Made by a program: the position numbers and the translations under genes
Shown: in pieces, positions 1,056 through 42,089 of the stretch
Layout: each line of letters opens with the position of its first letter
Numbering within the stretch: the first letter of the stretch is position 1
Assembly: GCA_038203745.1 (NCBI GenBank)
Contig: JBBRDR010000001.1
Location: forward strand, 12,357-76,356
DNA: 64,000 nucleotides
DNA from: Burkholderiales bacterium
GTDB taxonomy: Bacteria > Pseudomonadota > Gammaproteobacteria > Burkholderiales > Rhodocyclaceae
Direction of reading: 5' to 3'
The notes under the pieces: model-generated
Told to the model about the DNA's origin: nothing
Database searches by the model: none
What the model saw: the letters and a program-made list of their open reading frames with translations, nothing else

Positions 1056-1088
1056 AAAAAAGGGAGGCCAATTGCGGCCTCCCTTTTT
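1056..1088. terminator. Bidirectional intrinsic terminator
   Basis: AAAAAA-GGGAGGCC-aattgc-GGCCTCCC-TTTTT between convergent genes. Confidence 0.9.
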
Positions 1089-1111
1089 GCGTTATGCGCT
1101 GAAGCGCATCG

Positions 1112-1555: not shown

Positions 1556-1634
1556 GTTTGATCTCCGGTTATCAGCAGGTTAAATCGAATTCAGGTGGTG
1601 AGGTGTTTGAATGTTGGATGGGTTTTGAACAAGC

Positions 1635-2228: not shown

Positions 2229-2437
2229 GGTGAGTTTCAGAAGGGTTAAAGTGGCATGCTAAGATCGGCACTGTTCAAAGAAGTTCAGGAGTTTCATGAT
2301 GCCGATTACTGACATCGGGCCGCTCCAACACTGCAAGCCACCCCGAAGAAACAAAGGCTTCGCCTGCCTGATTATCGCCGTACAGCGTTTGGGTGTCGAG
2401 AAGCACGCAATTGCGACCGCACGCGCAAGGTTCTCAC

Positions 2438-3505: not shown

Positions 3506-3521
3506 TCGACTGCCTGTTGCT

Positions 3522-4295: not shown

Positions 4296-4328
4296 GATGT
4301 GATTTTTACACCGGTGAGTGTTTGCCAC

Positions 4329-4356
4329 TTGCAAATCAATTGTAGATCATTATACT
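4329..4356 (+). promoter_or_regulatory. sigma70 promoter for the gud-gar operon
   Basis: TTGCAA (4329-4334), 16-nt spacer, TATACT (4351-4356). Confidence 0.65.
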
Positions 4357-4362
4357 GCGAAA

Positions 4363-4384
4363 TCAGACGTACGACGACGTATGA
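4363..4384. promoter_or_regulatory. Candidate operator for the FadR-type regulator
   Basis: Imperfect palindrome TCAGACGT-N6-ACGTATGA (7/8 arm match) just downstream of the -10, where a repressor would bind. Confidence 0.55.
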
Positions 4385-4449
4385 TGTTCTGGCGATAAAC
4401 GTTAGCGTGAAGCATAACCAGCGGCGATCAAAGATGATGCGAGGCATGA

Positions 4450-5865
4450 ATGTCTGAGCAAATAGCGGGGCGTGGCGTGAGCGATACACCCATCGTTACC
4501 GGGATGCGTGTTATTCCCGTTGCGGGTCAGGACAGCATGCTGCTTAACCTGTGCGGCGCTCACGGCCCTTTTTTTACACGCAACATCGTGATCATCAACG
4601 ACAACGCCGGGCGCGCTGGCGTTGGCGAAGTACCCGGCGGCGAAGGTATCCGCCAGACTCTGGAGCGATCAATCCCGCTGGTGGTTGGCAAGCCATTGGG
4701 CCTGTACAACGGTATTCTGAACAGCGTCCGCCAGAGGCTCACGGGTGGGGGCAAGGCGGCTCATCAATCCACGGTCCATCAGGTGACTTCAGCCGCTGAG
4801 GCGGCCGTGCTCAAGCAGCCGCACGAGATCAACCTGCGCATGGACAACGTCATCACCGGCATTGAAGCGGCATTGCTCGATCTCCTCGGCCAGTTCCTGA
4901 ATGTTCCCGTCGCCGCCTTGCTGGGCAATGGCCAGCAGCGCGACGCCGTACGCATGCTCGGCTACTTGTTTTATATCGGTGATCGCACGAAAACCGATCT
5001 GCCTTACCTTTCCGATACACACGCCCGAGGCGACTGGTATAGCTCGCGTCACGAAGTGGCGATGACTGCCGATTCAATCGTGCACCAGGCCGAAGCGGCG
5101 GCTGACTATTACGGTTTCAGCGACTTCAAGCTCAAGGGCGGTGTGATGAGCGGCGCCGACGAGATGGACGCCATCAGGGGGGTCAAGAAACGCTTTCCGG
5201 ACGCACGGGTCACGCTTGATCCAAATGGCGCCTGGTCGCTGAACGAGGCGATTGCTTTGTGCAAGGGTCAGGGCCACGTGATGGCTTATGCTGAAGACCC
5301 CTGTGGTCCGGAAGCGGGGTATTCCGGCCGTGAAATAATGGCCGAATTCAAGCGCGCCACCGGGATTCCGACGGCCACCAACATGGTTGCCACCGACTGG
5401 CGCCAACTGAACCACTCTCTCAAGCTTGATTCGGTCGACATTCCGCTCGCCGACCCGCATTTCTGGACCATGCAGGGCTCGGTGCGGGTGGCGCAGATGT
5501 GCGACGAATTTGGCCTGACCTGGGGCTCGCATTCGAACAATCACTTCGATATTTCCCTGGCGATGTTCACCCACGTCGCAGCGGCTGCGCCCGGCGAAAT
5601 AACGGCCATCGATACACACTGGATCTGGCAGGAGGGCCGGGAGCGCCTGACCAGGGAGCCGCTGCAGATCGTCAATGGTCAGGTGCAGGTTCCGCAAAAG
5701 CCGGGTCTTGGGATCGAGCCGGATATGGATCAGATACTCAAGGCCAACGAAGTCTACAAAAAGCTCGGCAGCGGTGCGCGGGACGACGGAATGGCCATGC
5801 AGTTCATCGTGCCGGGGTGGAAGTATGATCCGAAACAGCCGAGTTACGGGCGCAACAAAGCCTGA
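4450..5865 (+). CDS. Glucarate dehydratase-related protein (enolase superfamily) with extended cap loop
   Basis: FKLKGG, LDPNGAW, EDPCG, TATNM and GSHSNNH motifs; paralog of the next gene. Confidence 0.9.
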
Positions 5866-5901
5866 TCCGGAAATGATTTATAAAAATTTAGAGGGTTAAG
5901 C

Positions 5902-7248
5902 ATGAGTCAGCAGCAAAACGTAAGCGGTGCTCCAAGTGTTACTGAAATGCAAGTCATCCCGGTTGCGGGACAAGACAGTATGGAGCTTAACTTGAGCGGC
6001 GCCCACGGTACGTATTTCACACGCAACATCATTATCCTGACGGACAGCGCCGGCAATACCGGGCTCGGCGAAGTCCCGGGCGGCGAGAAGATCCGTCAGA
6101 CCATTGAGGATGCGCGTTCGTTGATCATCGGCAAAACCTTGGGCGAGTACAACAACATCCTCAACGCCATGCGCAAGACCTTTGCGGATCGCGACGCCGG
6201 AGGTCGGGGTTTGCAGACCTTCGATCTGCGCACCACCATCCATGCCCTGACCGCGGTTGAATCGGCCATGCTTGACCTGCTGGGGCAGTTCCTGAACGTG
6301 CCGGTCGCATCTTTACTGGGCGAAGGCATGCAGCGCGAAGCCGTCCAATTCCTCGGTTACCTCTTCTATATCGGTGATCGAAAGAAAACTACGCTCGGCT
6401 ATCGCAGTGAGCCGAATGCGGATAATGATTGGTTCCGTCTGCGCAACGAAGAAGCGCTTACGCCTGAATCCATCGTGCGTCTGGCCGAAGCGACTCAAGA
6501 GCGTTACGGCTTCACCGACTTCAAGCTCAAGGGCGGTGTGCTATCCGGCGAAGAAGAAATGGAATCGATTATTGCGTTGCACGAACGCTTCCCCAAGGCG
6601 CGCATCACTATCGATCCGAATGGCGCGTGGTTGCTTGAAGAATCAATCCATCTGTGTCGCGACAAGCACGGCGTGCTGGCCTATTGCGAAGACCCTTGTG
6701 GCGCAGAAAACGGCTTTTCCGGCCGCGAGGTTATGGCCGAATTCCGCCGCGCCACCGGCTTGCCGACGGCAACCAACATGGTCGCCACCGACTGGCGGCA
6801 GATGGCGCACTCGATTCAGTTGCAATCAGTCGACATCCCGCTGGCCGATCCTCATTTCTGGACCATGCAGGGTGCGGTACGCGTGGCTCAGTTGTGCGAG
6901 ATGTTCGGCCTGACCTGGGGTTCGCATTCCAACAACCATTTCGACATTTCCTTGGCTATGGTGACTCACGCCGCTGCCGCCGCGCCGGGCAAGGTCACCG
7001 CCATTGATACGCACTGGATCTGGCAGGAGGGCCAACGTCTGACCAGGGAACCATTGAAAATCGTGGGCGGCATGATTCATGTGCCGAAAAAACCGGGTCT
7101 CGGCATTGAGATCGATAGGGTGGAAGTCGAAAAAGCGCACCAGGCCTACAAGTCCATGGGGCTGGGCGCGCGCGATGATGCTGTCACCATGCAGTTCCTG
7201 ATTCCGGGGTGGACGTTCGACAACAAACGCCCGTGTCTGGTGCGTTAA
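5902..7248 (+). CDS. gudD: Glucarate dehydratase
   Basis: Canonical [17 protein letters not shown] loop plus KxK, D, E, N and H catalytic/metal motifs. Confidence 0.93.
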
Positions 7249-7260
7249 AAGGAAATTATC

Positions 7261-8049
7261 ATGACAAGTACTCAACCGTACTCCGCTTTCCCGAATCAGT
7301 TCCGTCGCGACCTTGTTGCAGGCAAGCAATTGATTGGTTGCTGGTGTTCTTTGGCCAGCCCGAATGCAACGGAGGTTCTTGGAGTGGCCGGGTTTGATTG
7401 GATATTGCTCGATGGCGAGCATGCGCCGAATGACGTACTGACATTCATACCGCAACTCATGGCGCTGAAAGATAGTTCAAGCGCTCCCATCGTTCGCCCG
7501 AAATGGAATGACACGGTCGAAATCAAGCGTTTGCTGGATATCGGCTTCTACAATTTCCTGATTCCGTTTGTTCAGTCGGCAGATGAAGCGCGTCGTGCTG
7601 TTGCCGCCACCCGCTATCCGCCGGCGGGAATCCGCGGTGTGTCGGTGTCTCACCGGAGTAACCGCTTTGGTACGGTGAAGGACTACCTGCAAGTCATCAA
7701 TGACAATATTGCCGTGATGGTTCAGATCGAAAACCGGACAGGTGTAGAGGCCATCGACGAAATTTGCGCAGTACCCGGTGTGGATGGCGTTTTCATTGGC
7801 CCATCTGATCTGGCTGCAGCCTATGGCTATCTGGGTGATCCTTCGCACCCCGACGTCCAGGCCGCAATGCAGACTGTGTTTGATCGAGCCAGGACGCATG
7901 GCAAACCTGTCGGAATTCTCGCGCCGGCCGAAATAGATGCTCGCCGGTACATCGAAATGGGTGCGAGTTTTGTGGCTGTTGGCAGCGATCTGGGTGTCTT
8001 CCGTAGTGCGACACAGGCGTTGCGCGACAAGTATGCGTCGGTAGATTAA
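7261..8049 (+). CDS. garL: 2-dehydro-3-deoxyglucarate aldolase
   Basis: [31 protein letters not shown] and [16 protein letters not shown] closely follow E. coli GarL. Confidence 0.93.
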
Positions 8050-8098
8050 ACACGATTAATCACGCCGGGTAAAAGCGGCATAGTGCTAGGGGTTATAA

Positions 8099-8989
8099 AT
8101 GAGCAAAGTTGGTTTCGTAGGGCTGGGTATCATGGGTACACCAATGGCCGAGCACCTGATCAAGGGCGGGCATGACGTTTCCCTCTATAGCATTCCCCGT
8201 GTTCCCCAGGCGTTGATTGACGCTGGTGGTAAAGCCAGTGCCTCAGGCAAGGCGGTTGCCCAGATCGCCGACATCATTATTGTCATGGTGCCGGACACCC
8301 CTGATGTTGCTGCCGCCCTGTTTGGTGAAAACGGAATCGTCGAGGGGCTTGGCCAAGGCAAGATCGTCGTCGACATGAGTTCAATCTCACCGATCGAGAC
8401 CAAGGAATTCGCACTGAAGATCAATGCTCTTGGTTGTGAATATCTCGATGCCCCGGTCTCCGGCGGCGAAGTGGGCGCCAAAAATGCCACCCTCTCGATC
8501 ATGGTAGGCGGCAAGGAAGACACCTTCAATACCGTCAAGCCTCTATTCGAGTTGATGGGCAAGAACATTACCCTGGTTGGTGGCAATGGTGACGGCCAGA
8601 CCACCAAGGTTGCCAATCAGATCATCGTTGCGTTGACCATCGAGGCTGTTGGTGAAGCCTTGCTCTTTGCGTCCAAGGCCGGCGCTGACCCGGCTAAAGT
8701 TCGTCAAGCCCTGATGGGTGGATTTGCCTCTTCAAAAATTCTTGAAGTGCACGGTGAACGCATGATCAAGCGCACTTTCAATCCGGGTTTCCGCATCGAA
8801 CTGCACCAGAAGGATCTGAATCTGGCGCTGAGTGCAGCACGTAAACTGGGCGTGGCTTTACCCAATACCGCTACATGTCAGGAACTGTTTAACACCTGTG
8901 CGGCACACGATGGAAGCGCATGGGACCATTCCGGCATGGTCAAAGCGCTGGAACTGATGGCGAATTTTGAGATCGGTCAGACGACTTGA
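8099..8989 (+). CDS. glxR: 2-hydroxy-3-oxopropionate (tartronate semialdehyde) reductase
   Basis: GFVGLGIMGTPMA Rossmann motif, DAPVSGGEVGA and KVANQIIVAL. N-terminus is more GlxR-like than GarR-like. Confidence 0.88.
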   Translation: MSKVGFVGLGIMGTPMAEHLIKGGHDVSLYSIPRVPQALIDAGGKASASGKAVAQIADIIIVMVPDTPDVAAALFGENGIVEGLGQGKIVVDMSSISPIETKEFALKINALGCEYLDAPVSGGEVGAKNATLSIMVGGKEDTFNTVKPLFELMGKNITLVGGNGDGQTTKVANQIIVALTIEAVGEALLFASKAGADPAKVRQALMGGFASSKILEVHGERMIKRTFNPGFRIELHQKDLNLALSAARKLGVALPNTATCQELFNTCAAHDGSAWDHSGMVKALELMANFEIGQTT

Positions 8990-9087
8990 ATTAAGCGGGG
9001 TCGTCGCATTAATGAAGGTGAAATGAGGCAGAAAGAAGGCAGTAATGCTTTTGCGTTCCAGTTTTCTAATCCAAGGAGGTATTAATC

Positions 9088-10059
9088 ATGAAAAAAGCGA
9101 TTGGTTTTACTCTGATGGCAGTTGCGTTATCAATATCCAATGGTGCCAATGCACAGAGTGATGTGAAATGGCCGACCAAACCGATACAGGTTATCGTGCC
9201 GGCCGGCGCCGGTGGCGACACGGATTTCAATGCCCGCCAGATGGCGCGCTATTTTGAGAAGATCACCGGCAAGCCGATGGTGGTGACCAACGTCAATGGC
9301 GGCGGTGGCACGATCGCCATGTCGCAAGTTCAGGATGCAACGCCGGACGGCAATACGATGCTCTTTGCCCACACCGGGATGATGATCGTCAACGAAGTGT
9401 CCGGGTTGATTAACTACAAGTTCGATGCGAAGCTGGATATTTCCTGTATCCCGGCAGTCGACAAAGGTATCGTCTTCATCGCCAGCAAGAAGTCCGGTTT
9501 CAAGACCCTGCCGGAGTTGGTGAGCAAGGCCAAGGCGCAACCCGGTACGGTGATCTATGGCACCGAGCTGGGTGGCTATTCGCACCTGCAGGGGCTGATT
9601 TTTGCGAAACAGGCCGGCGTCCAGCTGAAAATCGTTGATGTCGGTTCAGCATCTGACAAGATCACTTCGCTACTCGGCGGGCGCATCGACCTGGCCTCGA
9701 TCTCGTTCGGCCCGGTCAAGGACTACGCGTCGACTGGTGACATGATCATGCTCGCCCAATACAGCAAAGAACCTAATCCGCTGCTGGGCGATATCAAGAC
9801 CTTCAACGAGCAAGGCATCAAATTCGACATGGAGAAGCCCTACATCATCGCCTTCCCGAAAGGTACCGATCCAGCGATCATCAAGAAGATGGCAGACGTG
9901 ATGCAGCAAATCACCAAGGATCCGGCCTACGCCAAGGCGCTGCAGGACGGGTTCAAGCAGCCGGTCTCGTTCTATCACACCAAGGAAGCCATCGCGGAAT
10001 TGAACAAGGTGCGGGATGATTTCATGCAGTACAAGGATCTCCTGCAACAGAAAAAGTAA
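9088..10059 (+). CDS. tctC: Tripartite tricarboxylate transporter substrate-binding protein
   Basis: Signal peptide, WPTKPIQVIVPAGAGGDTD, NVNGGGG and PDGNTML; AGGAGG RBS. Confidence 0.9.
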   Translation: MKKAIGFTLMAVALSISNGANAQSDVKWPTKPIQVIVPAGAGGDTDFNARQMARYFEKITGKPMVVTNVNGGGGTIAMSQVQDATPDGNTMLFAHTGMMIVNEVSGLINYKFDAKLDISCIPAVDKGIVFIASKKSGFKTLPELVSKAKAQPGTVIYGTELGGYSHLQGLIFAKQAGVQLKIVDVGSASDKITSLLGGRIDLASISFGPVKDYASTGDMIMLAQYSKEPNPLLGDIKTFNEQGIKFDMEKPYIIAFPKGTDPAIIKKMADVMQQITKDPAYAKALQDGFKQPVSFYHTKEAIAELNKVRDDFMQYKDLLQQKK

Positions 10060-10082
10060 TCCAGGTTCTCACGTTGTACCGG

Positions 10083-10108
10083 GAGAGGCGCGTTGCCGCG
10101 CGCTTCTC
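10083..10108 (+). other. Intercistronic stem-loop between tctC and tctB
   Basis: GAGAGGCGCG-ttgccg-CGCGCTTCTC, a 10-bp stem with one G-U and no U-tract; typical of a stabiliser after a binding-protein gene. Confidence 0.5.
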
Positions 10109-10140
10109 TGCGCTTTCAACATTTCTTGCAAGGATTCACC

Positions 10141-10605
10141 ATGAGTGACATTAAAAAGCGCGAGTTCGCCGTTGGCGTCTTTTTTCTTGCCATCGGTCTC
10201 GGCTACCTCTATTTGACAAGCAACCTCCCGCGCAAGCAGTCCATCGACGCGGCCTTCGTTCCTTATATCCTGGCAATCATCATGTGCGTTCTGGGTGTGC
10301 TGCAGCTGCGGGCGGCCAACAAAATCGTTGTTAGCGAAACATCAAGCGCTGCAGAGAAGGAAGACTATCGCACGGTCCTGAAAACGCTGGGTCTGATCCT
10401 AACGTACGCGGCTTTTCTCGAGCCGGTCGGCTTTCCGATAATGACCGTTTTGTATCTTTTCACCCAGTTCATAGTGTTAACGCCGACTGACAAGAAAGTA
10501 AATTATCTGATGTACGGCATCATCGCGGTCATCACGTCTGCGTCCGTCTATCTGACATTCCGTTACGCATTTGACATGATCCTGCCAGTCGGGCTAATGA
10601 ACTGA
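10141..10605 (+). CDS. tctB: Tripartite tricarboxylate transporter small subunit
   Basis: About four TM segments, AAFVPYILA and FLEPVGF motifs, located between tctC and tctA. Start taken as ATG 10141. Confidence 0.85.
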   Translation: MSDIKKREFAVGVFFLAIGLGYLYLTSNLPRKQSIDAAFVPYILAIIMCVLGVLQLRAANKIVVSETSSAAEKEDYRTVLKTLGLILTYAAFLEPVGFPIMTVLYLFTQFIVLTPTDKKVNYLMYGIIAVITSASVYLTFRYAFDMILPVGLMN

Positions 10606-10618
10606 AAGGCGCCACACT

Positions 10619-12124
10619 ATGCTATCTTTGTTCCAGCAAGGTCTTGAAATCGTATTCACGGTTCAGATTCTCGGTCTGCTTTTTTTCGGGACGGTTGTCG
10701 GCATCATTTTCGGTGCGATTCCCGGTCTGACAGCAACCATGGCGGTGGCCCTGTTTCTTCCAATTACATACTCTCTTGGCGCCAGCGCAGGCATCTCTCT
10801 TTTGATCGGGCTTTACATTGGCGGCGTCTCCGGCGGTCTGATTTCGGCAGTCCTGCTGAAAATCCCGGGTACGCCAGCCTCCGTTGCCACCGTTTTCGAC
10901 GGCGGGCCCATGATGGAAAAAGGCGAAGGGGCCAAGGCGCTCGGGGTTGGAATCGCCTACTCGTTTATCGGCACGCTGCTGAGTATCTTTGCGCTGATGT
11001 TCATTGCACCGACTCTGGCAAAAATTGCCTTAAGTTTTGGTCCGCATGAATATTTTTCGATTGCGATATTCTCGCTGACGTTGATCATTACCTTGGCGAC
11101 CGGTTCGATGATCAAGGGCATATTTTCGGGCGCGCTCGGTTTCATGTTTTCAACTGTGGGGATTGCGCCGGTAGACGCAATCACGCGTTTTACCTTCAGC
11201 CTGACCGCACTGAATGGCGGTTTCGATATTTTGACCGTATTGATCGGGCTCTTTGCCATTTCCGAGATCATCAAGGTCGCTGAAAGTGTCAAAACCGAGA
11301 AAAACGAAACCGTCAATTCGGTGACCATGAAAGGATTCGGCTTCTCCCTGAAGGAATTCTTCGGGCAGGGTTGGAATTGTATTCGTTCTGCACTAATCGG
11401 GACGGGTATTGGTATTCTTCCCGGCATCGGTTCCGGCACCTCGAATATCGTGTCCTACATGGTCGCCAAGAAGCGCTCAAAACATCCTGAAAAATTCGGC
11501 ACAGGAATCATTGACGGGATCGTTGCCTCGGAAACAGCCAGTTGTGCAGCGGTCGGCGGCGCCATGATACCGCTGCTGACTTTGGGTATTCCCGGCGACA
11601 CGGTGACGGCGATGTTGCTGGGCGGATTCATGATTCACGGTATTCAGCCGGGGCCACTGCTGTTTGTTACGCAAGGCCCGCTCGTTTACTCAATTTTCAT
11701 AGCCATGCTTGTTTCTTCTCTGATGATGCTGGTCTGCGAATTGTACGGAGTCCGTTTCTTCATCAAACTGTTGGCCGTTCCCAAATATATCCTGCTGCCG
11801 ATTATTCTGGTTCTTTGTTTCGTCGGTGCTTTCGGTCTGGGGAATCGCATCTTCGACGTTGGCACCATCGTGTTTTTCGGGGTGCTCGGTTATGGTTTCG
11901 TGAAATGCGGCATTCCACAAACGCCGTTCATTATCGGCCTCATTTTGGGCCCAATGGCGGAAACCAATTTGCGTCGCGGGCTGATGTTGAGCGATGGCAA
12001 CTTCATGGGGTTCCTGACTGAACCGATTTCAGCGACGTTGCTCGCACTGGCGGCGGTTTCGGTTGCCTTGCACATTTACCAAGATTATCGCTCCAAGCGT
12101 TTGGCAGCGAAGACAAGGTTGTAG
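10619..12124 (+). CDS. tctA: Tripartite tricarboxylate transporter large subunit
   Basis: GAIPGLTATM, LKIPGTPAS, LLTLGIPGD and GIQPGPLLF signatures. Confidence 0.93.
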   Translation: MLSLFQQGLEIVFTVQILGLLFFGTVVGIIFGAIPGLTATMAVALFLPITYSLGASAGISLLIGLYIGGVSGGLISAVLLKIPGTPASVATVFDGGPMMEKGEGAKALGVGIAYSFIGTLLSIFALMFIAPTLAKIALSFGPHEYFSIAIFSLTLIITLATGSMIKGIFSGALGFMFSTVGIAPVDAITRFTFSLTALNGGFDILTVLIGLFAISEIIKVAESVKTEKNETVNSVTMKGFGFSLKEFFGQGWNCIRSALIGTGIGILPGIGSGTSNIVSYMVAKKRSKHPEKFGTGIIDGIVASETASCAAVGGAMIPLLTLGIPGDTVTAMLLGGFMIHGIQPGPLLFVTQGPLVYSIFIAMLVSSLMMLVCELYGVRFFIKLLAVPKYILLPIILVLCFVGAFGLGNRIFDVGTIVFFGVLGYGFVKCGIPQTPFIIGLILGPMAETNLRRGLMLSDGNFMGFLTEPISATLLALAAVSVALHIYQDYRSKRLAAKTRL

Positions 12125-32981: not shown

Positions 32982-33404
32982 ATGCCACTCAGAGTTCATG
33001 TAGACGTTGTCAGTGCTGAAGAATTGATTTTCTCCGGTGAGACCGACTTCGCGGTATTTCCTGGCGAGGCCGGCGAGTTGGGCATCTACCCGCGCCACAC
33101 GCCATTGCTGACGCGTATCAAGCCCGGCACTGTGCGTTTGAAAATACCTGATCGTGATGAATATGAGCTGGTCTATGTCTCCGGCGGGATACTTGAAGTC
33201 CAGCCGACGCTGATTACCCTGCTGGCTGACACGGCGATTCGCGCGCACGATCTGGATGAAGCCAAAGCCATCGAATCCAAGCAGCGTGCCGAAGAAGCGC
33301 TGAAGAATCGAGCCGCGGATGTCAGCTATGCCTCGGCAGAGGCCGAACTGGCCATTGCCATCGCGCAGTTGCAGACGATCAAGAAAGGTCGCAAACACCA
33401 TTGA
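32982..33404 (+). CDS. atpC: ATP synthase F1 epsilon subunit
   Basis: [19 protein letters not shown] and [10 protein letters not shown]. Confidence 0.97.
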
Positions 33405-33428
33405 TCGGCTAGTCCGCAATCATGACAG

Positions 33429-33455
33429 AAGGCAGGCGTCAGCCTGCCTTTTTTT
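33429..33455 (+). terminator. Intrinsic terminator of the atp operon
   Basis: AAGGCAGGC-gtca-GCCTGCCTT followed by a T run (33449-33455). Confidence 0.9.
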
Positions 33456-33497
33456 CTGCCGGACTGCTCGCTCGATTATTGCTCACGCAGGAATGCA

Positions 33498-34376
33498 ATG
33501 GAACTTGTATTTCGCATCATTGGAATTGTTACTCCGGTACTGATCATTTCAGTCATCGGTTACGCTTACGGACGTCTCCGTCGGCCGGACATGACGTGGA
33601 TTAACCGTCTGTGCACCGACTTGTTATTCCCCATGCTGATTTTCACAGCCATGGTTTCCAGAGATTTCCACATTTTGGAGTATCTGCCACTAATCGGTGG
33701 TGGCCTGATTGTGATGTTTGGTTCCGGGCTCATAGCCTGGGGAGCGGCAAAAATTCTGGGTTATAACCCGCATGCCTTTATTCCCCCCATGATGTTCACT
33801 AATGTGGCGAATATGGGATTGCCGCTCACCTTGTTTGCATTCGGCGAATCGATGGTGCCTGCTGCCGTCGCCTTGTTCATGACTTTCAGCCTGTTTCAAT
33901 TTACGTTGGGAATACGGATTTGTGATCCCAAAGGCAGTATCAGCGGGATTCTCAAAGGGCCAATGCTGTGGGCCATGATCATTGGCGTGCTGGGTAGCCT
34001 GGTCGGCCTGTCATTACCCCAATGGTTGGCGACAAGCACCAAGATGCTGGGTGACACGGCCATTCCGCTGGGTTTGTTTACGCTAGGGGTGGGCTTTGCG
34101 AGTTTCAAGGTAGAGCGCTGGAATATCGGTATTGTTGGAGCCTTGCTCTGCCCGATATCGGGTTTGCTTATCGCTTGGCCCTTGGTCAAAATTATGCCGC
34201 TGACCGAGCCAATGAAACAACTCTTGCTGCTCTATGCGGCCTTGCCGCCAGCCGTAATGACCTATATCTTTGCAGAGCAGTACAAGCAGGATCCGGGACT
34301 GGTCTCAGCAATCGTGGTTGCCGGGAACATTGCTTCTTTGGCTTTTATTCCGTTCGCTCTGTATCTGGCTTTTTAA
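33498..34376 (+). CDS. AEC (auxin efflux carrier) family membrane transporter
   Basis: About ten TM segments with FTNVANMGLPL, LGDTAIPLGLFTLG and AALPPAV motifs. Confidence 0.88.
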   Translation: MELVFRIIGIVTPVLIISVIGYAYGRLRRPDMTWINRLCTDLLFPMLIFTAMVSRDFHILEYLPLIGGGLIVMFGSGLIAWGAAKILGYNPHAFIPPMMFTNVANMGLPLTLFAFGESMVPAAVALFMTFSLFQFTLGIRICDPKGSISGILKGPMLWAMIIGVLGSLVGLSLPQWLATSTKMLGDTAIPLGLFTLGVGFASFKVERWNIGIVGALLCPISGLLIAWPLVKIMPLTEPMKQLLLLYAALPPAVMTYIFAEQYKQDPGLVSAIVVAGNIASLAFIPFALYLAF

Positions 34377-34401
34377 GCCCCCCGGAATTATTGTTTGATA
34401 T

Positions 34402-34606
34402 GAAAACCGTACATTGCGGCGCACTGGTATTCCGGAAAGCTTGTTCAAGCTAAGAAACGAACTGTGTCTCAGATCGACCCATTGGAGACAGTCGAGGAGA
34501 GTGGAAGCAGACCTTGGCCTGGAACCCTCAAAAATAGAAAGCTGCCATTCGTTATGCCTTGGTGCTGTTCTCGTCTGGAAGGCGGCTATGCAGCGTTTTC
34601 GCCATT
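34402..34606 (-). repeat. Left degenerate modular repeat unit (five AAYG-type cores)
   Basis: Minus-strand cores start at 34606 (AATGGCG..CGCTGCATAGCCG), 34549 (AATGGCAGCTTT), 34515 (AAGGTCTGCTT), 34492 (ACTGTCTCCAATGGGTCGATCTGAGAC) and 34415 (AATGTACGGTTTT). Confidence 0.6.
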
Positions 34607-34691
34607 GGCATCTCGTGGGCATGAGATCTGAGCGGAGTGTTATCGTGTAGACTGGAACATTCCGACGGAATTCAGCATCAGGGGGAAAGAA

Positions 34692-36410
34692 TTGGACAAG
34701 ATAACAAAATCTCTGCTGGACACATTTGCAGGCCAATTTGAGCTGGAGAAGCTTGACGAACACGTGCAATTCGAACACTTCGCAAACTACGCAATCATCT
34801 CCAAACTCAATAGGTCAACATTCGACCTTGATGACATTCACGTTGGCAGCGGTGGCGACTGTGCAATCGACGGGATTTGTCTCGTCGTAAATGGAAAGAT
34901 TATTACTGACGCGGATGAACTGCGTGAAATTGTTGAGGGGCCTCAACATCTCGATGCTGACGTTATCTTTATCCAGGCAAAAACCACTTCATCATTTAGT
35001 GGGTCAGATATTGGATCGTTCATTCATGGAGTAAAGGACTTTCTTTCCGATACGCCAAAACTTGTTCAGAACCGCAAGATAAAAGAGGCAAGGTTTCTGT
35101 GGGACGCCGTAATATCAATGTCGTCCTACATGGTGGAGCGCCGCCCTCACTGCAAGCTGTTCTATGTCTGCACGGGAAAATGGATTAGTGACCAAAACCT
35201 ACAGGCGATCATTGACAGCGGGAAGAAGGAGATCGAATCTACTGGTTTATTCGATGATGTAGTCGTATCGCCCAACGGGGCGAACGAGATTCAGAAGCTA
35301 TATCACGAGACCAAGAACAAGCTTTCGACCACAATAACGTTCGTAAGCAGAATAACCCTTCCGGATATTGAAGGGGTCAAAGAGGCATACTTGGGGATTG
35401 TGCCTTTCCAAGAGTTCATCAAGTTAATACAAGATGAAAACCAAACAATTCACAGCATATTCGATGACAACGTTAGGGATTTCCAAGGGGAAAACTTTGT
35501 CAACAGAAAAATAAAGGAAACGCTGCTTCAACGAAAGTTTGACCTCTTTTGCTTACTAAATAATGGTGTAACAGTAGTTGCTTCGTCACTGACCCCAGCC
35601 GGAAACCGTTTCACCTTGCGAGACTATCAGGTTGTCAATGGTTGCCAGACTAGCAATGTTCTACACGAATGTCAGGGTATCGACGGGGTCGAGGCTGTTA
35701 ACGTACCTCTCAGAATCATTGTCACGGAAAGTGACGATATCAAGACAGAGATTACGCTCGCCACAAATAGCCAGACAGAGGTTAGGACGGAACAACTTGA
35801 GGCGCTCAGCGTGTTTCAGAAGCGCCTTGAACTTTATTATGCTGCTGAAAAAAACTCTATCACTCTCTTCTACGAACGACGCTCCCAACAGTACAACGCT
35901 CTCCCAAGTATAAAGCGGACACAGATTATTACGATTCCGATCCAGATCAAGTCGTTTGCGTCGACGTTCTTGCAGTCTCCGCATTTAGTATCTGGTTACT
36001 ACGGCACGATCGTAAATCGTTTTAAAGGACAGATATTTGCCGACGATCACAAGTTCTTACCCTATTACGTCAGCGCCCTTTGCTACTTCAGAATTGAGCA
36101 GTTTTTTAGAAGCGGCGAATTATCGTCTGACTTTAAGAAAGCACGCTTTCATTTAATGATGGTTGTGAAATTGCTTGCGATGCGCGGTGTGGAGTTACAG
36201 CTCAATAGCAATAAAATTGAACAGTTTTGCGAGAGTTTCAAGAAGACTCTTCTTGACGAAAAAGAGGCTCTTGCCCTGTATCTGCAAGCGAGCCAACTCT
36301 ATGAAAAGTCAGGGCTCGACATGACTAAGAGGCAATACAAGTCCGAATCAGAAACTGAAATGCTTGTGAATGCGGTGATGATGTTCCTAAAGAGCGAGGT
36401 GAATCCTTAA
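34692..36410 (+). CDS. AIPR family (abortive infection phage resistance) protein
   Basis: IFDDNVRDFQG, LNNGVTVV, VVNGCQTS and ATNSQ core; N-terminal GDCAIDG...IQAK nuclease-like motif; TTG start with purine-rich RBS. Confidence 0.88.
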   Translation: MDKITKSLLDTFAGQFELEKLDEHVQFEHFANYAIISKLNRSTFDLDDIHVGSGGDCAIDGICLVVNGKIITDADELREIVEGPQHLDADVIFIQAKTTSSFSGSDIGSFIHGVKDFLSDTPKLVQNRKIKEARFLWDAVISMSSYMVERRPHCKLFYVCTGKWISDQNLQAIIDSGKKEIESTGLFDDVVVSPNGANEIQKLYHETKNKLSTTITFVSRITLPDIEGVKEAYLGIVPFQEFIKLIQDENQTIHSIFDDNVRDFQGENFVNRKIKETLLQRKFDLFCLLNNGVTVVASSLTPAGNRFTLRDYQVVNGCQTSNVLHECQGIDGVEAVNVPLRIIVTESDDIKTEITLATNSQTEVRTEQLEALSVFQKRLELYYAAEKNSITLFYERRSQQYNALPSIKRTQIITIPIQIKSFASTFLQSPHLVSGYYGTIVNRFKGQIFADDHKFLPYYVSALCYFRIEQFFRSGELSSDFKKARFHLMMVVKLLAMRGVELQLNSNKIEQFCESFKKTLLDEKEALALYLQASQLYEKSGLDMTKRQYKSESETEMLVNAVMMFLKSEVNP

Positions 36411-36479
36411 GAGGGCGCCAACGCCGATCACATAGCCCAACCCAAGCCGCAAGACTAACCTTTCATTTCAGATTTCGTG

Positions 36480-36505
36480 ACCGTCAGCTTTGCTTGATCT
36501 CTGTC
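36480..36505 (+). repeat. Weak internal copy of the terminal repeat module between the two islet genes
   Basis: ACCGTCAGCTTTGCTTGATCTCTGTC versus AGCGGCAGCTGATGGCCGATCTCGGAC (39774-39800), about 18/27 by eye. Confidence 0.3.
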
Positions 36506-36534
36506 TGACCTCCCAAAACCACCTACTGTAGGTT

Positions 36535-39330
36535 GTGCGCGTGACCGTCGAAACTGAACCCGCTCCGGTCCTTGACCCAAAGCAACTGACCCGTATCGAG
36601 TCAGTTCATCGTGGGTTCATGTACCAGCATTTGTACGCAACGGGCTGCCTCCTCACAGCTTATGGGCACGTACTGTCTGTTCGCGTTGAAAGAGACGAAG
36701 ACATCGAGGTCGTTGTGGAAGGGGCGGTCAACTATATCCAGGTCAAAACGCGATCTAGTCCCCTTGCCTATGGCGACATAGAAGGAGCGCTGGAACGCTT
36801 CAAAACCCTCGGCGATGCCCATCGCGCCGGGCAACGCACCGGCGAGGCGCGGTTTGTCTTCGTCTCCAACGCAACTCCGTCGGACGCCCTGCTCCAGAAG
36901 CTCAACTCTGTGCCGCTGCCGCCCGATGTTTCGCTTGTTTGGCCGCAAGGTATTCTCGGACCGGCTGTCGATGGCCTCCCGGCGGCATGGCCAGACATAC
37001 CTGCTGCGGTTGCCTGGTGCACGAAAGCCGCAGAAAAGCTGCCCCTCAGATTCATTGCCTCGGAATCGCTAGTCTGGAAAATCGCCGCGCATGCCACCCT
37101 CGCGGCTAGTGGGACAGCCCCTTACCAGGACCACAGTTTTCAGGTCAGCGAACTGCCGACCCTCTTCGAGCAAATTCTTATCCAACTGCAGGAGTTCCCG
37201 GAACCACTGCAGCACTATCGCCCGCTGCAAGACGAACCTCCGCTTGAATCCAATGCGCATTTGAGGATTGTCTCCGGATTCTCAGGGGCGGGAAAAACTT
37301 CATGGGCTGCGCAATCGGCAGCGCACGCGGCTAATAGCTGCGTCTATTACGATGCGGCCGACACGCCACCCGCCGCACTGGCGTCGGCACTCGTCCGCGA
37401 AAGCGCAGCGCAGTTGCGATCGGCAACGTTGCCGTTAGAGCGCGTCCTTGCGCACGGCGCCACGGGACTTCAGTCGCTGCGCGCACTCGACGAAGCTTTG
37501 AGTGGTTGGGCACGGCCGCCAATTCTGGTGATCGATAATGCCCACAACCTGCCCGCGGCGGAGCTGCACCAAATCAGCAACGCGACAAAGCATATCCGGC
37601 TGGTACTTCTAAGTCATCCTGCTGCGATGATCGCAGAGCTGGAAGCTCTTACCGGGGCAAGCCGTGAGGAACTTAAGGGCTGGTCCGTGGAAGATGTCGC
37701 TGCGGAAACGACTGCGCTTGGTTGCCGCGGCCCACTTGCAGTAATGGACCGACTTCGCGCGCTGACGAGCGGTTATCCCCTGTTTGTCCAGGGTGCAGCG
37801 CATCTGGCGGCCCTTGAATACGCGGGTGATCTGGACACGTTTTGTTCGTCGCTTGAACACGGCACCCACGGGACCGCAACACCGCAGGAAACAATTTTGG
37901 CTCGGGTCTTCGATGCCCTTGAGCAGCCGGTGCGTCAAGCCGCAGGCCTGCTCAGTCTCGCGGATTTTTCTCTCAACCGCATTGAAGCTGCACAATTGCT
38001 GCTCGATTGCATGGGCCTTGAGGAGGCGTCAGCGTCCGGAATACTGCGCCAATTGCGGACGCGTGGCCTGCTGCAATTTTCGATGGGGGGGCGCGTTCGA
38101 CTCCATGATGCGCTACACATATTGGGTATGTCATATTTGCAGTCTCAAGGAACCGAACCCGCTAGGAAAGGGATGGAGTCCCTCCGCAGAATCGTTTTCA
38201 AATCACTTACCGAAGAACGAGATGTATCCAGATTAGGGGCGTTCGCACGCTTGCTCGTCTCATTAAATGACCTCGAACCACTCATCGAATTGATCGGTGA
38301 GGAGCTTTTTCACGAGCTAGGGGTAATCCCGGAAGTGATTGCTGCCCTGGAGCGCGCTCTCGCCGCGGGCCAATTGACTCCGGAACAACAATTCTGGGCG
38401 CATGACGGGCTTATCTTCGCAGCAATGAAGCATGGGGGTGGCCAGGCGGCATCGGAAAAAGCCAAACAATCGCTTGAGGCAATGGAAAGGTTGCGCGCCG
38501 AAGGTGCGCTGACGACCCGCCACGAGGCTTCGCTGTGGATGAAACGTATGCTCTACGAGGCGGAGCATCGCAACGCGGAAGGCGTGATGAATGCCCTTGG
38601 GAAAGTCCAGGCGGTCATACCGAAGGACAGAGCACATCTTCGAATCGCCAATTACAACGCGGCTCACGCGCTGTTCAAGCTGGGTAAGCACGAGCATGCG
38701 GAATCGATCGCGCAGGAGCTTGTCCCGGAATACTACGAGTTGCTTGGAATTGACCCGTCAGACGTTCTGGGTGTGACACAAAGCAAGCTTGCAGAGAAGC
38801 TCCGCGAACAAGATGCCGATAGTCAGGACATCAAGCACCTAGCCGATACGCTTGAATTGCTTGCTATGGCGCAGCGGGAGCAAGGGAATCGAAAATCTCT
38901 AGCGCGCGTTCACGCAATGCGATTCTATGAACTTGCTATGGCAGTGGATTCCGTGGTTCGAACCGGCCTTGATTTAGTCGATGACTTCGTCTGGATTAAC
39001 GACTTTGCCGGGGCGCGCCAAGTGATGGAAGATCATGTTCTCCCATATGTGCGGAATTACAAGCTGACCTCGAAATTGCTCGATGCACGCAGTCTGTATG
39101 CCATCGTTTTAGGTTATTCCGGGCACTTCGACGAGGCGGAACGGGAAATGCAACGTATTGCTCCGATAATCAGCGATGCCCCGCAAGAAATGCAAGAGCA
39201 ATTTGCGAGACAGAATGCTCTGATTGCCGAGATGCGCGTCAATGGAGTGCCGCGGCAGCGGCAGTTGCCGGGAGGAAAGCCCGCGTGCGTCTGCTCCAGC
39301 AAGAAAGGCCGGGAAGGTGGGACGCAATGA
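36535..39330 (+). CDS. Cap4/Mrr-like nuclease - STAND NTPase - TPR protein (Avs/NLR-like)
   Basis: HRGFMYQ..DEDI..YIQVKT (PD-(D/E)xK type), Walker A GFSGAGKTS, Walker B ILVIDNAH, GYPL, winged-helix RLHDAL and a helical repeat C-terminus. Confidence 0.8.
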   Translation: MRVTVETEPAPVLDPKQLTRIESVHRGFMYQHLYATGCLLTAYGHVLSVRVERDEDIEVVVEGAVNYIQVKTRSSPLAYGDIEGALERFKTLGDAHRAGQRTGEARFVFVSNATPSDALLQKLNSVPLPPDVSLVWPQGILGPAVDGLPAAWPDIPAAVAWCTKAAEKLPLRFIASESLVWKIAAHATLAASGTAPYQDHSFQVSELPTLFEQILIQLQEFPEPLQHYRPLQDEPPLESNAHLRIVSGFSGAGKTSWAAQSAAHAANSCVYYDAADTPPAALASALVRESAAQLRSATLPLERVLAHGATGLQSLRALDEALSGWARPPILVIDNAHNLPAAELHQISNATKHIRLVLLSHPAAMIAELEALTGASREELKGWSVEDVAAETTALGCRGPLAVMDRLRALTSGYPLFVQGAAHLAALEYAGDLDTFCSSLEHGTHGTATPQETILARVFDALEQPVRQAAGLLSLADFSLNRIEAAQLLLDCMGLEEASASGILRQLRTRGLLQFSMGGRVRLHDALHILGMSYLQSQGTEPARKGMESLRRIVFKSLTEERDVSRLGAFARLLVSLNDLEPLIELIGEELFHELGVIPEVIAALERALAAGQLTPEQQFWAHDGLIFAAMKHGGGQAASEKAKQSLEAMERLRAEGALTTRHEASLWMKRMLYEAEHRNAEGVMNALGKVQAVIPKDRAHLRIANYNAAHALFKLGKHEHAESIAQELVPEYYELLGIDPSDVLGVTQSKLAEKLREQDADSQDIKHLADTLELLAMAQREQGNRKSLARVHAMRFYELAMAVDSVVRTGLDLVDDFVWINDFAGARQVMEDHVLPYVRNYKLTSKLLDARSLYAIVLGYSGHFDEAEREMQRIAPIISDAPQEMQEQFARQNALIAEMRVNGVPRQRQLPGGKPACVCSSKKGREGGTQ

Positions 39331-39385
39331 CCCGTGACCCTGTGGCTCAGGTCGAAAGTTCAAGAAGTACCACGGCGCGAATTGA
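39314..39385 (+). pseudogene. Decayed SEC-C metal-binding tail of the STAND gene
   Basis: The +1 frame reads KVGRNDP*PCGSGRKFKKYHGAN*, against the SEC-C consensus [21 protein letters not shown]. Confidence 0.85.
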
Positions 39386-39513
39386 GTCCGCGTGGCTTTT
39401 CTCTTTCAGCGCATCGATCGCGTCAGATAGCTCGGCGATACCATATCGATTTCATGGAGAGGTACGGCTTATTCGGAAGCTCCAAGTAGTCGTTTGAGGC
39501 GATTCTCGCGCCT

Positions 39514-39908
39514 AAAGTCGCTTATCTGCACTTTGCGGCCGTTGATATATCAGTGCTTCAACTACCGGATTGGCCGACGGGCTGTCGGTGAGTAATCGGT
39601 TTGTATGACTGCTCGACAGCAAGCCGTCGTTCAGGGCCGGGCAAATCCATGCCAGCCAATGACAGCAGTCGCTGCGTAGCCGAAGTTAAACCAAAACAAA
39701 TCGGCGGCGCCGATTGAATGACCGTTATGGAGAACGACCGCACGTTGAGCGGCCGGTTTGGAGAAGAAACCCGAGCGGCAGCTGATGGCCGATCTCGGAC
39801 AAATCGTATCACTAAAATCCTAAAGACGATGACATTGTGCGTCGCACAATGCGCATCAATTGGGGATTACGGATAGGGGTTTCCCGGTGATCAACTGCAG
39901 CTTTCGAA
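39514..39908 (+). repeat. Right degenerate modular repeat array
   Basis: Plus-strand cores at 39560, 39604, 39658, 39717, 39733, 39748, 39774, 39848 and 39893 (AACTGCAGCTTTCG, abutting the ubiJ stop); one minus-strand copy at 39543-39514. Confidence 0.6.
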
Positions 39909-39909
39909 C

Positions 39910-40479
39910 TCAGCCTTTGAGAAGTGCTATCCGGCTTTCCAGTTGCGTCAGCGTTGCCTGCAGGCATTCGACGTCAGCGCAAAAAGAAGACACATCGCGA
40001 CGGCGGGCAATGGTCGGATTTTCTTCAGTGAAATATTCAGCCAGATTCAGCGCCAGATTGCTGGCCTGTTGTATTTGCCATGTAGCCAGCTGCTTGCCGC
40101 CCTCAACTAGGCGCCGTGCAGCGATGTCGCCAACCAGAATGGAAAGGTCGCTTTCAGCATCCCAGCGTAGATTGTGGAAAATAAAGCCCAGAGTCTCCGC
40201 CAGTTCAGCCGAGCCGCTAATGTGTGCGGAGGCCATGAGCGAAGTGCGATCAGTCAGCGCGCGCAGGGGTGCATCGGCAGGCAGGGTGATGCAAACAGCA
40301 GCAACAGCATTTTTGTCGCCGGGTATGAAAAGCCCGTCGCGGGTGATCTCCAGCGGCAGATTCAGCGCGCCGACTACAAGGCGCGCTGTTTGTCCGGCAA
40401 AAGGTTTGAGACGGTCGCGCGGCCAGACTTCAGACGTCAGAAGATGATTGACGAATCCCAGTGTCGCATCGACCAGCAT
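39910..40479 (-). CDS. ubiJ: Ubiquinone biosynthesis accessory factor (SCP2 domain)
   Basis: NHLL...RLKPFAG, ISGSAELA...LRWDAESDLS..GDIAA and EYFTEE; downstream of ubiE. Confidence 0.88.
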   Translation of the reverse strand: MLVDATLGFVNHLLTSEVWPRDRLKPFAGQTARLVVGALNLPLEITRDGLFIPGDKNAVAAVCITLPADAPLRALTDRTSLMASAHISGSAELAETLGFIFHNLRWDAESDLSILVGDIAARRLVEGGKQLATWQIQQASNLALNLAEYFTEENPTIARRRDVSSFCADVECLQATLTQLESRIALLKG

Positions 40480-40485
40480 CAGTAA

Positions 40486-41343
40486 TCAACCCAGTTGCTG
40501 GATTCCGGCGATAACCCAACCCTTGTTGCCTTCGGCCGGTTTGCTCAGATTCCAGACTTCATTAAACGGAACCGCTGCCGCGCCGGTCTCCTCGCGAATC
40601 ATGCCGCTAAAGTTTACGCTGGCGATATGGCGGTTGGCTTCGGTCGTGATTTCGAGAAGTTCGGCGTTGAGCGTGACGACATCCGTTTGCTGAGGCGCTG
40701 TGCCACGTTCATCCATTTGCATTTTGATTTCAGCAAACAGTTCCGGACTGGTAAATTCGCGAATATCGGCAAGATCCATGGCGTCATTAGCGGCTTGCAA
40801 GCGAACGAAATTGAGCTTGGCGACGCGCAGGAAAGCTGTGGTATCGAAGCCTGCGGGCATTTGTTGCGCAAAAGGTTCCGCAGGAGCGGCAGAACCAAAC
40901 TGGGCGTTCTGAACCGGCTGACCCATGGCTGGATTGCCGGCGCCTGCGTACTGCATCGGATCGTTGGCTTGTCCGGCCGGCGTTTTGCGGCCGAACAATA
41001 ACTTGAAAACAAAAACGGCTGCGAAGGCCAGCAGGGCAATCATCAGAATGTTGGCCATGCCCTCACCCATACCAAAATGCGAAAGAAGCGCAGCAATGCC
41101 AAGGCCGGCAGCAAGACCGGCAATCGGCCCCATCCAGTTACGTTTGGGGGTTGCCGCCGCGGCACCCGCAGGCGCGGTTGGTGTGGCGGGAGCCGCTTGT
41201 TGCGTAGGGGCAGGTCTCGGAGAAACGGCCTGGCGTTGCATGCCAAAAGATTTTCCGCCGCCAAAGCGTGCTGCCTCAGCTTCACCTACGCTCAAGCCAA
41301 GTGCCAAGATTGCAACAAAAACAGACATCAGAATTTTGTTCAT
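40486..41343 (-). CDS. Tim44 domain-containing protein
   Basis: ARFGGGKSFG after a signal peptide, GLAAGLG...LLSHFG, and a Tim44 core (F..LQAAND...WVIAGIQQ). Confidence 0.9.
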   Translation of the reverse strand: MNKILMSVFVAILALGLSVGEAEAARFGGGKSFGMQRQAVSPRPAPTQQAAPATPTAPAGAAAATPKRNWMGPIAGLAAGLGIAALLSHFGMGEGMANILMIALLAFAAVFVFKLLFGRKTPAGQANDPMQYAGAGNPAMGQPVQNAQFGSAAPAEPFAQQMPAGFDTTAFLRVAKLNFVRLQAANDAMDLADIREFTSPELFAEIKMQMDERGTAPQQTDVVTLNAELLEITTEANRHIASVNFSGMIREETGAAAVPFNEVWNLSKPAEGNKGWVIAGIQQLG

Positions 41344-41354
41344 TGGTGATTCCT

Positions 41355-42089
41355 TCAGAATTTAAAACCACGGTGTAATGCAACAACCCCAAGCGTCAGG
41401 TTGAAGTATTCGACTTTCTCCAGACCGGCTTGTTCCATCAATATTTTTAATGCGTCCTGATCCGGATGGACGCGTATTGATTCGGCAAGATAACGATAGC
41501 TGGCTTCATCTTTGGTGATGAACTCGCCAATGCGCGGGATGATCTTGAACGAGTAAAAATCATAAACAGGCGCCAGCGGCTTCCACACTTGTGAGAACTC
41601 CAGAACCAGAACGCACCCGCCGGGACGCAGCACGCGCTTCATCTCGGCAAGAGCGGCATCCTTGTGGGTCATGTTGCGCAGACCGAAGGCGACGGTAACA
41701 CAATCAAAATAATCATCAGGGAAGGGCAGTCTCTCGGCGTCACACTGGGCGACCGGGATCATGAACCCCTTGTCACAGAGTCTGTCCCGGCCATTGGTCA
41801 GCATGGCGTTGTTGATGTCAGTCAGCCAGACCTGCCCGCTCTTGCCGACCTTGCGCGCAAATGCCAGCGAGAGATCGCCCGTGCCGCCGGCAACATCAAG
41901 CACCCGCGAACCTTCGCGAACGCCGCTGCGGGCAATGGTAAATGCCTTCCAAAGCCGGTGCATGCCGCCGGACATGAGGTCATTCATCAGGTCGTAGCGT
42001 TGGGCAACCGAAGTGAAGACCTCGGCTACGCGGCGTGCTTTTTCAGCCTCGGCAACCTGTTCAAATCCGAAATGTGTTTTGTCATTCAT
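41355..42089 (-). CDS. ubiE: Ubiquinone/menaquinone C-methyltransferase
   Basis: [31 protein letters not shown] and YRYLAESI. Confidence 0.97.

Follow-up and report, generated by a model that had tools for sequence, protein, structure and literature searches.

The ends of Tn7-like and Mu-like elements are arrays of about 100–150 nt, built of several transposase-binding sub-repeats; how many sub-sites there are, and how they are spaced, is not the same on the left as on the right. Repetitive extragenic palindromic (REP) units are palindromes of 20–40 nt paired within ~100 nt, with a RAYT gene between inverted REPs. The attC sites are imperfect palindromes (R''-L''/L'-R') that are recombined as folded single strands and form arrays in direct orientation next to intI/attI; their cassettes are co-oriented and mostly promoterless. 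Mobile insertion cassettes (MICs), described as MIC231 in Bacillus cereus and in Xanthomonas, carry ends derived from insertion sequences (IS) or Tn3 around passenger genes and contain no transposase (PMC4337579; PMC6199540, PMC6542083). On Acinetobacter plasmids, accessory modules with defence, toxin-antitoxin or resistance functions are bounded by inversely oriented pdif sites (PMC6449649, PMC13141974, PMC10132070). How small defence islets and other accessory genes reach 'hot spots' without a nearby integrase or transposase is an open question. Here we analyse a two-gene islet in a stretch of 64,000 nt from a Burkholderiales bacterium (the window; contig JBBRDR010000001.1), which an earlier note had described as bracketed by two modular repeat units in inverted orientation. 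We find that both flanks are almost certainly diverged, oppositely oriented members of one genus-specific modular repeat family. As interspersed repeats or mobile-cassette ends the units are of a known kind; the unusual part is their heterotypic geometry, which suggests that they may terminate mobile gene cassettes of a novel type.

Short BLAST matches of the flanks in related genomes, all of them intergenic, pointed initially to a tandem array close to tmRNA in one relative (G009) and subsequently to two sets of copies. The decisive profile was built from 11 copies, all taken from other genomes, and was searched against the whole 3.26 Mb genome (non-circular). Its two best matches in the genome were the two islet flanks, on opposite strands: 39655–39798 on the plus strand (E 4.6e-20) and 34474–34610 on the minus strand (E 4.2e-12). 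This bears out the inverted arrangement described in the earlier note. Similarly, a profile of eight copies recruited via the right flank alone found the left flank on the minus strand with a genome-wide E of 0.0016.

A model scan, which the earlier note had proposed, revealed further copies in the same genome and in relatives. With a sequence-only model (R1) at E ≤ 0.001, 26 of the 54 genomes that represent the genus proved to contain copies; G009 carries at least 50, G049 14, G036 13 and G013 11; these genomes are related drafts, one per species, in which repeats are under-assembled, and the counts are not independent. The genome under study has seven R1 copies, namely the two flanks, two on contig C111 and one each on C185, C42 and C148 (weak), and other profiles add a third, partial copy on C111. 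The window itself holds no copy beyond the two flanks, just as the earlier note had observed, and the remaining copies of the genome are on other contigs. Many units are found at contig ends of the draft assemblies, as expected for repeats.

The units are about 150 nt long, or up to ~220 nt with a distal box. In each, three or four direct sub-repeats of degenerate sequence precede a short hairpin rich in G+C. The sub-repeats take the forms (A/C)AATG(A/G)C.GCTTT, CAACGGC.GCTTT and AGCGTC.GCTGATGGCCGA. Copy alignments define box 1 (..AATGAC.GC...CGCTGC..AGCCG), box 2 (GAATG.C.GCTTT), box 3 (CAACGGC.GCTTT) and box 4 (..CGTC.GCT.ATGGCCGA, then the short G+C hairpin), which are degenerate direct repeats of one another. 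A distal box, GTGCG.CGC, lies ~55 nt past box 4 in a subset of copies that includes both window flanks. The repeats are thus modular and have several sub-sites, as had been proposed. The first four of the five motif positions listed in the earlier note coincide with conserved boxes of the family and the fifth with the distal box; the linkers, by contrast, are not wholly unrelated as it had claimed, and boxes such as GAATG.C.GCTTT and CAACGGC.GCTTT are conserved as well. Fixed indels between the sub-repeats divide the copies into two clearly separated types: a TTTGGAGAAAAA block is present in type I, whereas type II is 9 nt shorter there and has an extra TTTT earlier.

The islet has one unit of each type. 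The left flank is a type-II unit on the minus strand (34446–34607), which scores 111 bits with the type-II profile versus 20 with the type-I profile and is matched by R1 at E 3.5e-18; its box 1 (AATGGC..CGCTGCATAGCCG) lies beside the cargo and its GGGTCGATCTGAGAC box is distal. A distal extension on the same strand (34406–34445), which includes the GTGCGCCGC box at 34416–34424, forms the outer edge of the inserted DNA. The right flank is a type-I unit on the plus strand (39654–39820; 116 bits with the type-I profile; R1 E 1.9e-23) with box 1 (AATGAC..CGCTGCGTAGCCG) beside the cargo, the TTTGGAGAAGAAA block inside and the GCTGATGGCCGATCTCGGAC box distal. It is 69–73% identical to the copies on G009:C19 and G049:C567. 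Its distal box (39829–39850) is a palindrome, CATTGTGCG-T-CGCACAATG, which includes GTGCGTCGC, folds as single-stranded DNA with a z score of -2.56 and was also scored as a terminator-like hairpin on the minus strand (39852–39832). The motifs on which the inverted match had originally been based are all present at the positions given for them; among these, CGCTGCATAGCCG (34595–34583, minus strand) agrees with CGCTGCGTAGCCG (39670–39682) at 12 of 13 positions, ATGGGTCGATCTGAGAC (34482–34466) is paired with ATGGCCGATCTCGGAC (39785–39800), and GTGCGCCGC (34424–34416) with GTGCGTCGC (39837–39845). The right unit overlaps a degenerate copy of a 'body' module of ~70–130 nt that precedes type-I units in some relatives. 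This copy (39519–39657, plus strand) was recognised from nhmmer and BLAST pieces, and an nhmmer profile from the G009 and G049 copies matches 39600–39688 at E 1.6e-5.

Neighbouring units 0.5–15 kb apart mostly point away from each other: 13 pairs are outward (-,+), one is inward (+,-) and seven are on the same strand (p 4e-4 for the outward excess against a 25% expectation; p 0.002 for (-,+) vs (+,-)). All ten clear outward pairs are heterotypic, joining a type-I to a type-II unit in either order, where chance predicts 0.475 per pair and ~6e-4 for all ten. Outward pairs bracket different accessory genes in at least 10 places in six species. The brackets measure 2 to 10 kb, each pair has cargo unrelated to that of the others and on either strand, and the only transposase seen inside I/II pairs is that of one IS91-like insertion. 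When the orientation of the units was roughly compared with that of the neighbouring genes, there was a weak bias of the distal side towards the gene 3' end (18 vs 11, crude open reading frame (ORF) calls), so the pair geometry is not simply a by-product of gene direction. Direct dimers are always arranged as type I and then type II, abutting.

The units, each with several sub-sites, lie at the borders of variable cargo, some of it related to defence. The association of inverted pairs with variable cargo including defence systems, which the earlier note had suggested as a check, is borne out. The flanks align better than shuffled controls, the model finds other copies and these accompany variable cargo, the reverse of each of the three outcomes that the earlier note had named as speaking against its proposal. 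Besides the islet genes, the cargoes include a Druantia type III system on G054:C79, whose operon has one unit at a distance of 85 nt and the other at 112 nt, on its two sides, and genes for a chemoreceptor, an FG-GAP/solute-binding protein, a multihaem cytochrome c, a ubiquitin-domain autotransporter and a pyruvate-kinase-like protein. A second cassette in the genome under study, on C111, carries a GGDEF-PAS gene beside a tRNA gene.

The Druantia system (G054:C79:1200-12009) is complete, with genes at 719–6943 (-) and 6976–10449 (-), a DruE3 bit score of 2265 and a DruH3 E of 1e-119; the type-I unit lies at 545–630 (-) and the type-II unit at 10563–10709 (+). On C111, where features were mapped at 967–1044, 1422–1593, 1625–4342 and 4437–4601, a type-I (-) and a type-II (+) unit enclose a gene for an SBP-PAS-GGDEF-hemerythrin protein of 905 aa. 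This cassette is located just downstream of a tRNA-like 77-nt stretch that is 78–98% identical at many relatives' loci, and similarity to G007 is lost right after this stretch. The ubiquitin-domain cargo (G036:C240 1441–2901, minus strand) encodes 486 aa with a eukaryote-type ubiquitin domain (Pfam ubiquitin 3e-30) and an autotransporter beta-domain.

In the window, the islet region (34377–39909) holds two genes and lies between two convergent conserved genes that both read towards it. On the left is a gene for an AEC-family membrane transporter (33498–34376, plus strand; Pfam Mem_trans), which is kept in G007 and G016; on the right is an SCP2/UbiJ-like gene (39910–40479, minus strand; weak Pfam SCP2 match), which is conserved genus-wide and in relatives adjoins atpC or the transporter gene. 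The first cargo gene (34692–36410, plus strand) encodes an AbiU/AIPR abortive-infection protein of 572 aa (Pfam AIPR 1e-42; PADLOC AbiU 4e-132). The second (36535–39330, plus strand) encodes an ATPase of 931 aa, whose N-terminus resembles LmuA/HamA (DUF1837) and precedes AAA_22/AAA_16; we refer to it as a nuclease-like STAND ATPase. The G+C content of abiU is low (0.43–0.47) compared to 0.55–0.61 in the ATPase gene.

The AbiU–ATPase segment is an insertion in a variable spot and is absent from relatives. The two core genes are separated by just 55 bp in G016, and the closest relative, G007 (80–87% nucleotide identity), has a different gene of 144 aa at this site. The transporter gene is missing in G013, G009, G034 and G004, where atpC abuts the UbiJ-like gene. 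None of the other genomes in the 54-genome set has units at the islet site. Similarity between the window and G007 runs ~30 nt beyond the transporter stop codon and ends at ~34405; on the right side it resumes only at the UbiJ-like stop codon. The left unit reaches the edge of the inserted DNA because its distal box lies ~10 nt inside the point where G007 similarity ends.

We explain these observations, with a probability of about 0.5 for the explanation as a whole, by a repeat family whose outward-facing type-I and type-II units would form the ends of a non-autonomous cassette mobilised in trans. Two units of different type that face outward mark the ends of inserted accessory segments of 2–10 kb; in the window this segment runs from ~34406 to ~39850 and carries AbiU and the STAND ATPase between the convergent core genes. 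The units would represent the non-identical left and right ends of a transposon-like cassette, and an enzyme encoded elsewhere would bind the sub-repeats and act in trans. Membership of the family and the outward geometry are close to certain. That the units are the very sites at which the segment was mobilised we judge to be slightly less than evenly likely.

Judged by analogy, the anatomy (two different inverted sub-site arrays, arbitrary genes and no transposase) is that of a non-autonomous transposon or a mobile insertion cassette, which is our preferred reading. As in MICs, two inverted ends bracket a few passenger genes, the cargo varies, no transposase lies inside and mobilisation in trans would be needed. 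In contrast, MIC ends are short terminal inverted repeats of autonomous IS or Tn elements in the same genomes and are accompanied by target duplications, whereas the present ends are modular, measure 150–220 nt and come in two types, and neither an autonomous parent nor a duplication was found. Tn7 and Mu share with the units the sub-repeat arrays, the differing ends and insertion at 'safe' spots downstream of conserved or tRNA genes; unlike them, the units show no TGT/ACA termini or 5-bp duplication and also occur as direct dimers and tandem arrays.

Several observations weigh against a cassette with functional ends. We detected no target-site duplication at the window ends or at 10 pairs, the exact termini of which are not defined, and no closely related genome pair with a filled and an empty site that break exactly where the units end. 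An autonomous element, with its own transposase enclosed by units of the two types, was not found, and no candidate enzyme (Y1, IS91-like or TniQ) has ends of its own that match the units. The direct I-then-II dimers and tandem arrays are unusual for transposon ends and typical of mosaics of the REP or bacterial interspersed mosaic element (BIME) type or of the neisserial intergenic mosaic element (NIME) type. Compared pairwise, the two units of the window show only weak similarity, abiU moves between lineages without units, and the genomes are kin, so the cross-genome counts are not fully independent.

The main rival account takes the units for passive mosaic intergenic repeats, comparable to REP/BIME of enterobacteria or NIME/Correia repeats of Neisseria, which would spread or be duplicated by themselves and gather in non-essential spacers, above all at the borders of acquired DNA and downstream of convergent genes. 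On that account they might serve as terminators, insulators or mRNA stabilisers rather than as sites of cargo movement, and the cargo would have come in some other way, for example by homologous replacement via the conserved genes on either side. The units indeed resemble REP/BIME, REPIN-RAYT, NIME and Correia repeats in being lineage-specific and extragenic, in having several types, mosaics, tandem arrays and terminal hairpins; the variable spacers between conserved genes recall the 'minimal mobile elements'. Unlike REPs, they consist of ~150 nt of direct sub-repeats with only the short terminal hairpin palindromic, and their pairs enclose whole genes. Solo copies with sharp edges fit a passive role: the copies on G009:C48 and G009:C191 are 96% identical across exactly 130 nt and have unrelated flanks, and therefore units also spread alone, as our preferred reading likewise allows. 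The dimers and arrays, and the weak bias of the distal side towards gene 3' ends, point the same way. So do the hot-spot character of the islet site, whose content differs in G007, G016 and the atpC–ubiJ genomes, all without units there, and the occurrence of abiU in another lineage without units.

One tandem array lies on G009:C19 (2881–3261 and 3557–3600) and contains two copies, with a period of 227 nt, of a longer repeat variant composed of a type-I unit and a ~70-nt body. It is found ~300 nt from the tmRNA 3' end and beside a DUF2971 gene, which is a typical island-integration neighbourhood.

A terminator scan gave two hairpins, both in the right flank and facing transcription from the UbiJ-like gene, which favours the passive account; the left flank, however, has no terminator-like site, and a promoter scan gave nothing in either flank. 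Folded as single-stranded DNA, the whole units did not surpass shuffled sequences (z -1.35 and +1.18), and covariation was not detected, which likewise argues against the passive account. In the consensus folds of the body module, energies were weak and covariation was almost absent on both strands (the ~150-nt units were not consensus-folded). Searching Rfam at E ≤ 1 returned no relevant match in window 33000–41500 or in the G009:C19 array. We therefore rejected a structured RNA, given the lack of an Rfam match, the lack of covariation on either strand and folds at shuffle level. A coding function of the body module was rejected too, as all six frames contain stops or frameshifts in several copies, and its codon-position pattern fits no open frame.

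What a passive repeat leaves unexplained is the geometry: the heterotypic I/II pairing in 10 of 10 cases, the 13 outward pairs against one inward pair irrespective of the strand of the enclosed genes, and the placement of units close to either side of a 10-kb Druantia operon. We consider this account possible, if on the unlikely side. Were the ends passive, the strict I/II pairing would still need an explanation, and it would help to locate the borders of islands in these genomes.

The earlier note had gone further and likened the units to cassette-capture sites, analogous in role to attC or pdif and served by a recombinase in trans. The part that stands is that they border variable cargo; no evidence of recombination, excision or inversion, no attC-like fold and no enzyme tied to the sites was found. 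The proposed role at the borders of captured gene cassettes is shared with attC. The units are nevertheless not attC sites: unlike these, they have no such fold, occur as isolated inverted pairs (intI was not searched for) and enclose cargo on either strand with its own upstream region. Like pdif modules, whose enzymes are encoded elsewhere, the segments are bounded by inversely oriented sites. In contrast, pdif sites are 28-bp XerC-spacer (6-bp)-XerD sites between abutting plasmid modules, whereas the present units are chromosomal, 150–220 nt long and arranged as isolated pairs. Inspection of the left distal box showed a resemblance to GTGCGC..AATGTA of Escherichia coli dif only, and no XerD-type arm was seen in the distal boxes; a unit is probably not a Xer site. 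A chromosomal dif site, looked for in the draft genome as a comparison, was not located.

In its boldest form, the cassette reading would describe a previously undescribed chromosomal system in which accessory genes, including complete anti-phage systems (AbiU plus STAND ATPase, Druantia III), are packaged between type-I and type-II ends and moved in trans. The enzyme might be a HUH transposase of the IS91 family, with the terminal hairpins as its substrate, or a recombinase so far unrecognised, and the same ends might persist as solo and dimeric relics. We hold this form to be doubtful. The repeat family nevertheless offers a testable handle: its ends are of two recognisable types and face outward in a fixed way, the cargo is diverse and the candidate enzymes are few. 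If the ends are functional, they would constitute a new vehicle by which an environmental, betaproteobacterial-like genus exchanges defence systems and provide a sequence signature to find such cassettes in metagenomes.

Among the candidate enzymes, the recombinase co-occurrence sought by the earlier note emerged for one family, the IS91-type Y2 HUH transposases, at the level of whole genomes; the ends of IS91 elements differ from the units, and the RAYT and TniQ candidates were rejected. Genes for Y2_Tnp are present in 10 of 14 genomes with at least three units versus 2 of 40 others (Fisher 2e-6), and the genome under study has two intact copies (C82:6420-6980 and C34:614-1108, both on the minus strand). 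A specific version of the preferred reading has the cassettes mobilised by such a rolling-circle transposase, with the units or their distal hairpins as surrogate origin and termination signals, which would explain two non-identical ends. Element ends lie beside a type-II unit in G013:C15 and G036:C213 and abut its distal hairpin in the former, and in G009:C172 the transposase gene is downstream of a type-II unit with a weak, untyped unit match on its far side. Similar hairpins occur at both ends of several IS91-like copies, and a hairpin of the GGCCG..TATGTA..TACATA..CGGCC type is common to IS91 end flanks and the distal ends of several units. This could equally be a target of the IS and is a lead only.

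On the other hand, the conserved element ends (TTGTACTAAACCGCTGACGCGG.. and ..CTAAAAACCCTCTGC) are unlike the units, a unit lies within 1.5 kb at just 3 of 10 top-class loci and in inconstant geometry, and the gene is missing from four repeat-rich genomes. Moreover, repeat-rich genomes are larger and related, so the co-occurrence may reflect general mobile-element load, and the hairpins may simply be a preferred target of the IS. We regard mobilisation by an IS91-family transposase as improbable. The idea that the units are themselves IS91-like ends (oriIS/terIS) was rejected, only the flanking hairpins being alike. The IS91-family elements consist of an ORF of ~290–330 aa followed by the Y2 transposase of ~400–445 aa and have conserved ends, with ~375 nt conserved after the transposase stop codon. 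Several copies show perfect GGCCG..TATGTA/TACATA..CGGCC hairpins at both ends, which may be target or part of the element.

Two further enzymes were rejected. Y1/RAYT-like genes are common in the genus, and at 12 Y1_Tnp loci in 9 genomes no unit was detected within ~2.5 kb at E < 0.1, which disposes of a RAYT/REPtron arrangement. A Tn7/Tn5053 partner was rejected on the distribution of TniQ, which the genome under study and most repeat-rich genomes lack and which occurs in genomes free of the repeat.

Compared directly, the two flanks give a marginal signal that by itself leaves the case open. A global alignment of the reverse complement of 34402–34606 with 39658–39860 scored 5.5 (p 0.002 against mononucleotide shuffles), a score that 1.8–3.1% of arbitrary real 203-nt stretches of the window match in arbitrary register. 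We also used a block statistic that sums short ungapped blocks within five adjacent diagonals, in both orientations and all registers. It was 25 for the flanks, from three collinear inverted blocks (12/15, 12/13 and 7/7), versus 15.1 +/- 3.3 for dinucleotide shuffles (p 0.007); p was 0.037 against same-length random genome segments and 0.015 against intergenic-like pairs. Neither flank retrieved the other with BLAST or single-sequence nhmmer, and the pair was not among the 25 longest inverted repeats ranked by a repeat search. A chance resemblance of two unrelated intergenic regions, which these pairwise results would permit, is refuted by the other-genome profile, with the flanks as the genome's top two matches, and by the right-flank profile, and is so remote that we dismiss it.

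The repeats belong to the host lineage rather than to abiU, because eight AbiU loci in other taxa lack units and because the similarity to a Sulfuritalea metagenome-assembled genome, which is labelled as another genus, is limited. This match (window 34935–36451 vs Sulfuritalea sp. JALNZB010000047.1, 128–1644) has 93% nucleotide identity and was found there only. On the same two grounds, the absence of units at the eight loci and the sharing of 34935–36451 only, we rejected the repeats as part of an abiU cassette. The similarity begins at codon 82 of abiU and stops 41 nt past its stop codon, and the ATPase gene is not shared. These boundaries suggest a recent transfer of abiU or a recombination breakpoint within the gene. 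Short DNA matches to the distant genomes G030 and G023 overlap the end of the ATPase gene (window 39317–39375).

Finally, the surroundings of the islet show further signs of turnover. The AEC transporter gene looks like an older insertion into an ancestral spacer between atpC and the UbiJ-like gene; it occupies this spacer in G000, G007, G016 and probably G049. The Tim44-like gene next to the UbiJ-like gene (window 40486–41343) has a paralogue with 75% nucleotide identity in the same genome (C13:34779-35669), and several relatives carry two or three Tim44-like copies.

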